This document shows, one piece after another, positions 22,801 to 24,814 of a stretch of DNA of 64,000 bases. Each line of letters opens with the position of its first letter. The first letter of the stretch is position 1. Source of the stretch: an uncultured bacterium (GTDB lineage: Bacteria; Chloroflexota; UBA5177; JANWHV01); NCBI GenBank assembly GCA_963729625.1, contig CAVSOU010000010.1, positions 64,001 to 128,000 on the forward strand, in the 5' to 3' direction. A program made the translations under genes and the position numbers. The notes beneath the pieces are model-generated. The model saw only the letters and a program-made list of their open reading frames with translations, was not told where the DNA came from and made no database searches.

Positions 22801-24814
22801 CGTGTATGTCGAGGACTGCGGCACAACTCGCGGCATGTGGGTATCGGAGAGCGACTCGGGGGAGAAGCTCGAGCGACGCATCACGGGCCGCTGGACCGTT
22901 CGTAACGTCGTGCATCCGAAGACTGGTGAGGTAATCATCGGTGAGAACCAGGAGATCACTGAAGCTCTTGCCAGTACGTTTGTGGATGCGTTGCGGTCGC
23001 ATCGCGAAAAGGTCCAGAAGGTCGGTGACATACTGGCCGAGGCAGTAGTCAAGGGGCTGAGAACGCCTGCAGCTGAGAATCGCGAGGCTACCAAACTGTT
23101 GTCAAGTCCTGAGGGGAAGTCGCTGCGCGTTCACGGGGACAAGATTCGCCAGCTCGCCGGGTTATTGGCCGACACATTTGTGGAGGCTCTGCACTCGCTG
23201 CGCGATCGGACCCATGACATCAGCGACAAGCTCGTCGATTCATTTATCGAGGGTCTGCGCGCCCATCCTGTGGTGGCCGCGGTGCACGAGAACCCAGTCG
23301 TCGACGCGCTTCGCGCTGAGGAAGGCCCCGACTATCGCCTTACGAAGGCGTTGGCTGCACTGGTGGTCGACGGGCTTCGAACCCACCCAATCGTCGATGA
23401 ACTGCATGCGTATGAGGCGAAGACTCAGGATATCACGAAGGCGCTTGCCGGCGTCATCGTTGATTCGCTGCGCTCCCACGATCACGAGAACCAACGTGGG
23501 CTGTACGTGCGTTCCGTGCTCAACTGCCTGGCCAAGCGTGGCGTCTGCCGGCACTGCTATGGCTGGAGCATGGCAACGCGGAACCTGGTGACTGAAGGCG
23601 AAGCAGTCGGGATCATTGCCGCCGAGTCCATCGGCGAACCCGGTACGCAGCTGACCATGCGCACATTCCACACTGGCGGTATTGCCGGTGAAGACATCAC
23701 GCAGGGACTTCCGCGTGTCGAGGAGTTGTTTGAGGCGCGCGAGCCAAAGGACAAGGCTGTGATCTCCGAGATTGACGGCATCGTGGAGATTGTGAAGGAC
23801 GAGGCCGACCAACATGTGCGGGTGACGTCGAAACGTGATTGCCGCGATGTCTACAGTCTCCCGCCGGCATTTGAGCTACTTGTGGTGGCCGATTCTGAAG
23901 TCGATGTGAATCAAGTACTCGCCCGGCCAGCAAGCGAGGCGGAACCCGCGGCGCAAGGGAGCGCCACCCCGCCCGCTGTCGTGGAGGATACATCCGATCA
24001 GATCGTATCGCGTCACAAAGGTAGGATCGCGATTTCGGATGACAACATCATCGTCTTCTATGAGGACGTCGATACCCGGCTCTACCAGGTCGGCAAGGTT
24101 GCTCGCCTCCGGGTTGAAAACGGGAAGAAGGTGCTCGCCGGCACGCAGCTCACCGAAGGGTCAGTGGGGCCGCAGGATCTGCTCGAGATCCAGGGACCCG
24201 AAGCCGTGCAGAAGTATCTCGTGGCCGAGGTGCAGCGCGTCTACCGCTCTCAGGGCGTCGGGATAAATGACAAACACGTCGAAGTCATCGTTCGACAGAT
24301 GTTGCGGAAGGTGAAAATCGAAGACGCGGGCGATACTGAGCTGCTCCCTGGGGAGCTCGTCGATCGTTTCGTGTTCGAAGATATCAATGCTCGGGTGCTC
24401 GCCCAGGACGGCCAGCCGGCCGTAGCGAAGGCCGTGCTGCTTGGCGTGACCAAGGCCAGCCTGAACACCGACAGTTTCCTGGCGGCAGCCTCATTCCAGG
24501 AAACGACTCGAGTGCTCACCGAGGCGGCAATCTCCGGCAAGAAAGACCGGCTCCTGGGTCTGAAAGAGAACGTGATCATTGGCAAGCTCATTCCGGCCGG
24601 GTCGGGCCTGATGAGCCGGCGTGCCGCAATGGCAGCGGAGGAGGCAGAGGAGCAGCTGTTTGAGAGTGGCGGCGTCGCAATGCTCGAGCGCGGTGGAGAC
24701 GGGCTTGGCGCGTTCGATGACGGGCTCGACTCTGCAGCTCCGGACATCTTCGGCGACATGCCGGACGAGCTCGATGACCTTGATGTGGAGACCGGCGACC
24801 TGGACATTGAGTAG
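19859..24814 (+). CDS. rpoC: DNA-directed RNA polymerase beta-prime subunit with two large insertions
   Basis: N-terminal Zn finger, [29 protein letters not shown]; 1651 aa. Confidence 0.99.

Follow-up and report, generated by a model that had tools for sequence, protein, structure and literature searches.

The RNA polymerase (RNAP) beta-prime subunit encoded in the DNA stretch analysed here carries a tandem array of eight related units, predicted to be amphipathic helices with short linkers, at a position where its close relatives have a single unit. The stretch, referred to below as the window, comprises 64,000 nucleotides (nt) from an uncultured Chloroflexota bacterium (positions 64,001 to 128,000 of contig CAVSOU010000010.1, assembly GCA_963729625.1; genome G000 in what follows), and all positions are those of the window unless otherwise stated. 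The array occupies positions 22955-23497 of the plus strand, corresponding to RpoC residues 1033-1213 (181 residues, no stops), and consists of seven full copies and one partial copy of a helix-plus-linker unit of about 22 residues. We are highly confident of four points taken jointly, namely this anatomy, an origin in situ, a single gain and selective constraint. The best overall explanation is probably that the array is a lineage-specific beta-prime insertion that grew in place, was selected, and forms a peripheral module on the shelf of the enzyme.

The host gene, rpoC (19859..24814, plus strand), is a 4956-nt open reading frame (ORF) coding for 1651 amino acids (aa). Its product matches Pfam Rpb1 domains 1-5 (PF04997, PF00623, PF04983, PF05000 and PF04998) with E values from 7e-82 to 3e-12, all exceeding the family cut-offs, and the catalytic NADFDGD motif is readable in the translation. 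It is the single rpoC match in G000, a 5.4-Mb, 21-contig draft, and is preceded by rpoB and followed by rpsL, rpsG and fusA. The five domains in order, the cysteines of the second zinc site and the single-copy rpoB-rpoC context are all as in a bacterial RpoC. The array is enclosed in the zinc-binding domain that follows the bridge helix (22817..23557, plus strand; beta-prime-bD5 or BEAN, part of the shelf module), which was delimited from motifs and PDB alignment and spans from Cys987, in the motif EDCGT starting at aa 985, to Cys1223, Cys1230 and Cys1233, in the motif RSVLNC...CRHC starting at aa 1218. Four cysteines (C28, C264, C271 and C274 in the numbering of the RpoC fragment) are invariant across 21 aligned sequences, and the cysteines of the two motifs are those that we take, from work on E. 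coli and Thermus, to be the zinc ligands of the second site.

Residues 960-1035 of RpoC align with residues 787-866 of E. coli beta-prime in the PDB sequence alignment. The E. coli shelf, jaw included, comprises residues 787-931/1135-1150/1216-1317; the bridge helix runs straight into it, and it lines the downstream-DNA channel (PMC6970531). Placement of the insert on the shelf, from this alignment and the published residue ranges, is loosely supported, and so is the location near the secondary channel and jaw that had been proposed in an earlier note on this DNA, in that the flank falls within the shelf with its jaw. The beta-prime-bD5 domain corresponds to the BEAN domain (CATH 3.90.105.10) and covers residues 838-917 in Dehalococcoides mccartyi and 807-888 in Xanthobacter autotrophicus (PMC11515920, Table 2). 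The same source gives seven beta-prime insertion sites, and the insert sits at one of them, site (iv), the 'second half of beta-prime-bD5'.

The earlier note had described about eight related units between EDCGT and RSVLNC, the first five exactly 22 residues apart, and this account was borne out by the stop-free translation, the motif positions and the unit starts. Units 1-5 begin at aa 1033, 1055, 1077, 1099 and 1121, with a spacing of exactly 22; next come a half unit (aa 1143-1160), a long-linker unit (aa 1161-1191) and the last unit (aa 1192-1213). Two genomes of the same genus serve as references here: G001, which has the insert, and G003, which has a single native unit. Unit 1 (22955..23020, aa 1033-1054, linker REKVQK; this and all following units on the plus strand) stands at the position of the native helix, scores 56 against the native unit of G003 and has 77% aa identity to G001. 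Unit 2 (23021..23086, aa 1055-1076, linker AAENRE) has 41% aa identity to G001 and a ratio of nonsynonymous to synonymous substitution rates (dN/dS) of 0.40. Unit 3 (23087..23152, aa 1077-1098, linker GDKIRQ) is degenerate, scoring 0-23 against the other units, with a 4-aa indel relative to G001 and a dN/dS of 0.56. Unit 4 (23153..23218, aa 1099-1120, linker RDRTHD) gives a self-match to unit 1 at lag 66, and the sequence DRTHDISD in its region is identical in all three orthologues. Unit 5 (23219..23284, aa 1121-1142, linker PVVAAV) shows 77% aa identity to G001 and a dN/dS of 0.15. The partial unit 6 (23285..23338, aa 1143-1160, beginning PVVDALR) is recognisable only in its C-terminal half, has a dN/dS of 0.07 and includes EEGPDY, again identical in the three orthologues. 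Unit 7 (23339..23431, aa 1161-1191), with its extended linker, scores 56 against unit 8 and 47 against the native unit, and self-matches at lags 31 and 40. Unit 8 (23432..23497, aa 1192-1213, linker DHENQR) scores 59 against the native unit of G003 and joins the conserved strand.

The unit consensus reads [ILV]-T-[ED]-x-L-A-x-x-[FV]-V-[DE]-[AG]-L-R-[AST]-H, followed by about six mostly charged residues. Leucine is near-invariant at unit positions 5 (22 of 23 letters tabulated) and 13 (23 of 24), and positions 9 and 10 are mostly F, V or I, a pattern that in these sequences fits packed helices. The repetition is statistically significant: the best ungapped 16-residue self-match scored 56 (shuffle mean 22.9, maximum 43), 121 windows scored at least 25 (shuffle mean 0.8, maximum 14), and none of 300 shuffles reached the observed value on either measure. 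Most pairs of unit cores score 18-56, while the degenerate units 3 and 6 score 0-23; these values refer to 16-residue cores scored with BLOSUM62, for which the 99.9th percentile of random 16-mers of the same composition is 17. The claimed amphipathic periodicity was also recovered, the hydrophobicity of the insert being most strongly periodic at 3.7 residues, with a further peak at about 22.9. At the DNA level no repeat was found in the array, as Tandem Repeats Finder (TRF) returned 0 rows and a repeat search gave only five two-copy matches of 13-25 nt.

Comparison with relatives supplied the state without the array. The distance from the first zinc cysteine to the CxxC is 244 aa here and 240 in G001, versus 81-90 in the 11 other Chloroflexota loci with script-matched motifs (85 in G002); G003 and G004, which read EDCGA, fall outside this count and are insert-less by their sequence fragments. 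The congeners G002, G003 and G004 carry a single unit at the array position, matching both flanks of the insert with two matches that overlap on one unit. In G003 this native unit is VTEALSGAVVDALRSH, within the wider context EEVTEALSGAVVDALRSHGNNQPRGLYIRSVLTC. As the distance is 244 here and 85 in G002, the net gain is 159 residues, or seven extra units, the boundaries of the insert within a unit being arbitrary. The statement of the earlier note that this stretch is normally one short helix agrees with these distances, and the unit count in related genomes came to eight in G000, G001 and the metagenomic fragment P0004, and to one in G002-G004.

As judged from the sequences, it is well supported that the array was built in place by serial duplication of the native helix, as the earlier note had also supposed, because no other protein resembles the insert. 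Units 1, 7 and 8 score 47-59 against the native unit of G003, and within the array unit 5 scores 40 and unit 4 scores 33 against unit 1. The strong self-match at lag 66, equal to three units, suggests that at least one duplication took in a multi-unit block. No match to the insert outside rpoC was found in its own genome in protein and DNA searches, and none in Pfam; a search of the ESM Atlas with the insert gave no usable match, and a PDB sequence search gave one chance-level match (E 0.57). The guanine-plus-cytosine (GC) content of the insert (0.58-0.61) is at the level of the remaining gene. Since the protein, DNA, domain and structure searches and the GC content gave none, there is no sign of a donor gene or mobile repeat.

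Three other origins were considered and rejected: a mobile DNA repeat, there being no other DNA copy in the genome (best off-target E value 0.19); foreign composition, as the GC contents of insert and gene are equal; and an intein or other intervening element, as the units are similar to the host helix and Pfam gives no match.

Extra sequence at this point could also stem from an artefact of assembly or binning, or from the capture of a domain of some other gene or mobile element, and some circumstances favour the former: G000 is a metagenome-assembled draft, 87% complete with 5% contamination, and the 5' junction of the insert lies outside the coverage of public contigs. However, the insert is present, colinear and in frame, in three different sequences, and exact contigs from two runs cross its 3' junction. 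For capture, there is neither another genomic DNA copy of a sequence whose GC content equals that of the gene nor a donor family, in a phmmer search of 1.84 billion representative proteins. Both versions are already largely refuted and are, to our mind, scarcely credible. The contigs come from three DNA runs of one study, possibly including the source sample, at low depth, and cover the 3' half of the insert and the conserved flanks; none of them spans the whole stretch, and the runs listed included no RNA run. They match without differences at 23252-23525 (run X1) and at 23287-23437 and 23419-23569 (run X2), and those at 23252-23525 and 23419-23569 cross the junction of unit 8 with the conserved strand. 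Mapping across the insert, as the earlier note had proposed, thus succeeded for the 3' half and the 3' junction but not for the 5' half.

The rpoC gene of G001 has three frame changes within the N-terminal insertion, near aa 248, 305-313 and 356 in the numbering of G000 (locus L028, G001:C14:443000-448500, about 1660-3104, minus strand). Gene callers therefore start the protein at an internal methionine (P0003, 1290 aa). The rpoB gene upstream also looks fragmented in the ORF list of G001, and the frame changes are probably assembly indel errors and not a real split gene.

The insert was found in three sequences only, those of G000, G001 and P0004. The flanking domain was found in 39 of 41 related genomes, and was matched across the insert only in G000 and G001, which belong to the same genus and are 77% identical over aa 960-1260. 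The three carriers have the same eight-unit layout and 69-72% identity, and the 4-aa indel in unit 3 of G001 is the sole length difference. The phmmer search with the 181 residues against the 1.84 billion representative proteins returned one protein, P0004, an 816-aa RpoC fragment with 70% identity over the whole insert. Word-indexed searches of 5.8 billion proteins returned P0003 and P0004 only, and in P0003 the insert sequence is the same as at locus L002 of G001. In JGI metagenome contigs, an alignment scan gave 409 pattern matches, 0 of them confirmed, and 0 matches were obtained with a degenerate DNA pattern encoding the clade-specific junction peptide; a genome-contig search with the insert alone gave 163 pattern matches, likewise with 0 confirmed, and the same kind of search with the alignment gave 7 loci, all insert-less.

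A wider sample of 401 Chloroflexota genomes, which includes six flagged as unpublished (G018, G055, G175, G226, G271 and G343), was searched with an insert-less query, and 381 were matched. Two matches were obtained in 21 genomes, and the cause was resolved in 18. It is the helix-repeat array in G000 and G001; in G195, an extension of about 45 aa at the insertion point of the array, unrelated to it and without visible repeats; in G280, some 52 additional aa at another place in the zinc/BEAN domain; a split at an earlier loop (query residues 43-55) in G140, G220 and G373; contig breaks in G157, G143 and G031; a frame change in G013; and two separate rpoC-like genes, each uninterrupted, in G270, G379, G281, G120, G184, G344 and G400. 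The other three genomes (G276, G308 and G356) are of the same genera as G220 and G140. The G280 segment (locus L044 on G280:C93, 1075-1656 of the locus, minus strand) has the pattern GAKILAKGHEHVEKDQIIALIP...GGVVEDNKGGLFLHY, which looks strand-rich, and may on that pattern be a small barrel-sandwich-type insert. In G270 the two rpoC-like genes lie about 11 kb apart on one contig (G270:C10:40020-40430 and 51175-51585), in open frames of 1615 and 1741 aa. For G120 and G400 (family f22), the second rpoC-like match is 43-46% identical to the query domain, and the open frame that holds it is shorter, at about 1200 aa.

A maximum-likelihood tree of 13 RpoC sequences was computed with the insert left out, from at most 370 aa ending at the helix and 400 aa starting at the CxxC, with outgroup rows hand-picked from the loci of the 41-genome search. 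In this tree G000, G001 and P0004 form one clade with support of 100/100, which adjoins the insert-less G002 (89/91); G003 and G004 lie outside, and the genus is supported at 100/100. Because the three carriers are nested as one clade beside the insert-less G002, the simplest history on these sequences is one gain after the split from the G002 lineage, complete before the three carriers diverged.

We envisage the following course of events. In the native state, the last elements of the zinc-binding domain ahead of the strand with the second zinc cysteine are a single amphipathic surface helix and its short linker. Within one uncultured Chloroflexota genus, the 22 codons for helix and linker would have undergone several in-frame duplications in an ancestor of the carrier subclade, some of the duplications involving multi-unit blocks, with seven extra units (159 aa) as the outcome. 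The copies would then have diverged until similarity at the DNA level was gone, the array being complete before the three sampled lineages split.

As to its structure, the array would be an all-helical, mildly acidic appendage on the only beta-prime subunit of the cell. AlphaFold2 modelling of aa 960-1260 with a 21-sequence alignment gave a mean predicted local distance difference test (pLDDT) score of 61.5, with 73-91 in the flanks belonging to the zinc domain and 42-62 in the insert, and modelling of the insert alone with three sequences gave a mean of 43.7. Both runs placed helices only across the insert. A structural check of the kind suggested earlier therefore returned helices throughout but, at such low pLDDT, no usable tertiary fold. 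In a Foldseek search against the PDB, 72-88 columns of the model were aligned, and all 50 matches listed were beta-prime chains. We propose, tentatively and as something that falls somewhat short of probable, that the array would fold into a compact helical stack or bundle at the periphery of the enzyme and would act as a docking or steric module on the shelf, taking no part in catalysis. This role is suggested because of the analogy with other lineage-specific RNAP inserts and the position on the shelf. The insert lacks Cys, Met and Trp and has a net charge of -5, and this acidity argues against direct DNA binding.

The charge also bears on the possibility that apolipoprotein-like 11/22-mer helices tether the polymerase to the membrane or a lipid body, membrane binding having been among the functions suggested in the earlier note. 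The 22-residue unit, the hydrophobicity period of 3.7 (close to 11/3) and the Pro or Gly residues at some unit boundaries are as expected for such helices, but a packed helical domain yields the same periodicity, the hydrophobic moments of the units are moderate (0.26-0.50), and no Pfam match to an apolipoprotein or other family was found. With moments and charge that favour neither membrane nor DNA binding, we regard lipid tethering as very improbable. We know of no precedent for a bacterial RNAP tethered to the membrane via beta-prime.

Histidine makes up 5.5% of the insert versus 1.7% of the remaining protein (10/181 versus 25/1470; binomial p 0.001), as the description of the array as His-rich had implied, and 15 of the unit copies tabulated have it at unit position 16, several of these residues being kept in 3/3 orthologues. 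The aligned histidines at the C-terminal ends of the units could then bind a transition metal and couple RNAP to metal availability. However, LRSH already closes the one native unit in G003 and G004, so that the enrichment comes largely from the LR[ST]H end of the template and is a by-product of duplication. Some of the histidines are not kept, unit 8 reading RSH, RSN and RAS in the three carriers, and the insert contains no Cys, no recognised known metal motif and no Pfam match. A metal-responsive module is thus improbable, though somewhat less so than attachment to lipid. A more elaborate form of the docking proposal, which we consider rather unlikely, holds that the array is an eight-helix solenoid with a conserved histidine ladder and acidic linkers on the shelf, recruited as a regulatory handle that docks a clade-specific factor or senses metal and so alters shelf or swivel motions, and hence pausing or open-complex formation. 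If this were true, a new domain would have been born from one secondary-structure element in an essential enzyme within the lifetime of one genus, and bacterial RNAP would have its first all-alpha, self-templated sequence insertion, one that runs counter to the idea that RNAP insertions came to a stop early in the evolution of bacteria.

Sequence comparison of G000 and G001 indicates that purifying selection is maintaining the array, more loosely than the core. The dN/dS of the insert is 0.15 (64% aa identity, 155 codons), against 0.028 in the upstream flank (95%, 573 codons) and 0.024 in the downstream flank (94%, 435 codons), values that are rough because dS is saturated. Several linker motifs are invariant in 3/3 carriers. 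The main rival to a selected module is a tolerated passenger, produced by slippage at a permissive surface site, with no specific function and under selection only to be soluble, helical and non-interfering. It would account for the dN/dS of the insert being about five times that of its flanks and reaching 0.4-0.56 in units 2 and 3, for the low AlphaFold2 confidence, for the unrelated extra segments that the same domain takes in other Chloroflexota (G195 and G280) and for the fact that close congeners manage without an array. Yet the eight-unit layout and 64-72% identity have been kept across lineages whose synonymous sites are saturated, the linker motifs are invariant in 3/3 sequences beyond what a hydrophobic core needs, and the copy number has not changed since the three carrier lineages split. 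We find a passenger possible but on balance unlikely.

Several points nonetheless weigh against a selected peripheral module grown in place. A compact fold is an assumption, because the AlphaFold2 confidence for the insert is low, and only the helical secondary structure was relied on; the segment could be partly disordered. The public contigs reach the 3' half and the 3' junction only, not the 5' junction, and the assembly of G001 is error-prone, with three frame changes in rpoC, although its insert is in frame. Values of dS between 1.2 and 2.0 are at saturation, units 2 and 3 evolve much faster (dN/dS 0.40 and 0.56, with the 4-aa indel), and the purifying selection could merely reflect the need to stay soluble and out of the way. 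A lineage-specific insertion that grew in place and was selected as a peripheral module on the shelf is, with these points taken into account, the reading that we retain.

The array would be a rare, evolutionarily recent instance in which a core enzyme has grown a new appendage. Lineage-specific RNAP inserts are usually ancient and beta-rich, and their origin is therefore no longer traceable. Here the state before (one helix, in G002-G004) and the state after (eight units, in three sequences) coexist, which amounts to a natural experiment. It opens the questions of how tandem duplication can make a module grow out of a fold already present and of what degree of structural novelty an essential, highly conserved enzyme can accommodate. 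Should the array prove to have a partner or to affect regulation, this would point to clade-specific control of transcription in a poorly known group of uncultured Chloroflexota.

Two further features of the same gene were observed. A second large insertion lies near the N-terminus of RpoC (20270-20900, aa about 140-345), is rich in charged, heptad-like residues, and goes with a Pfam domain 1 (312-position profile) spread across aa 6-513. It is probably the 'type 2' beta-prime-bD2 insertion of Chloroflexi (PMC11515920), with about 200 aa here compared with 70 aa in Dehalococcoides mccartyi in that source. The protein also has a long, strongly acidic tail (24640-24811, aa about 1595-1651), which is kept in G001 and P0004.

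Finally, the array was compared with known insertions and repeats. The beta-prime inserts described in PMC11515920 are HABAS (sandwich-barrel hybrid), BEAN or sLC domains, found in deep lineages (the DST group, Firmicutes and Mycoplasmatota). Like the inserts given there for site (iv), the array lies in the same host domain and the same part of it, and is internal, in frame, on the surface and in an essential subunit. Unlike them, it is all-helical, consists of copies of a host helix, matches no domain family and arose within a genus. A HABAS fold (four-stranded sheet with a GD-box), or a BEAN or sLC fold, was not recognised in it, since the low-confidence models have helices only, Pfam gives no match and PDB matches have E values of at least 0.57. 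The view in the earlier note that known beta-prime inserts are not such repeats thus stands as to the kinds of domain described, but the site itself is already listed. A literature search that included parts of PMC11515920 found no description of an all-helical, self-templated beta-prime insert; older insert catalogues were outside its scope. In PMC11515920 (Alvarez-Carreno et al. 2024) it is suggested that insertions ceased in late-diverging groups, a suggestion that the array qualifies.

The SI3 insert of E. coli and cyanobacteria, made of repeated sandwich-barrel hybrid motifs in the trigger loop (PMC10895346; bioRxiv 10.1101/2021.01.27.428476; PMC11515920), resembles the array in being surface-exposed and in having grown by repeated duplication of one module, from 2 to 9 copies, and in E. 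coli it docks on the shelf and jaw (PMC6970531). Its units differ in being beta-rich, of about 60-90 residues, ancient and in the catalytic trigger loop, whereas those of the array are recent 22-residue helices in a non-catalytic domain. In grass plastids, rpoC2 has a clade-specific in-frame tandem-repeat insertion of about 400 bp attributed to slipped-strand mispairing (Cummings et al. 1994, via PMC2695775), which parallels the array as a clade-specific in-frame repeat insertion in the gene for a beta-prime-equivalent subunit. The grass insertion, in the middle of rpoC2, still shows repeats at the DNA level and differs in length from species to species (up to 68 codons; PMC2695775), while the array is made of amphipathic helices, shows no DNA-level repeat and has a fixed number of units in all three carriers. 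The marks of slipped-strand mispairing, repeats at the DNA level and variation in copy number, were accordingly absent (TRF 0 rows, identical unit number in the three carriers), and the mechanism of origin may be of the grass rpoC2 type but older. With apolipoproteins and LEA-type proteins the array shares tandem 22-residue units with 11/3 periodicity; membership by sequence and a lipid-seeking character, as far as these can be read from residues, were not found (no Pfam match, moments 0.26-0.50, charge -5).

A parallel in position is the extension in G195, a genome of another Chloroflexota family, which has the same insertion point, after the helix and before the strand with the second zinc cysteine, and a helical-looking residue pattern. 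At about 45 aa, not visibly repetitive and without similarity to the array, it is unlike it in sequence and represents an independent event. The extra segments of G195 and G280, together with the listing of the site in PMC11515920, support the view that the site is tolerant of insertions. In our reading the array represents a new type of lineage-specific beta-prime insertion, all-helical and situated at this known insertion-tolerant site.

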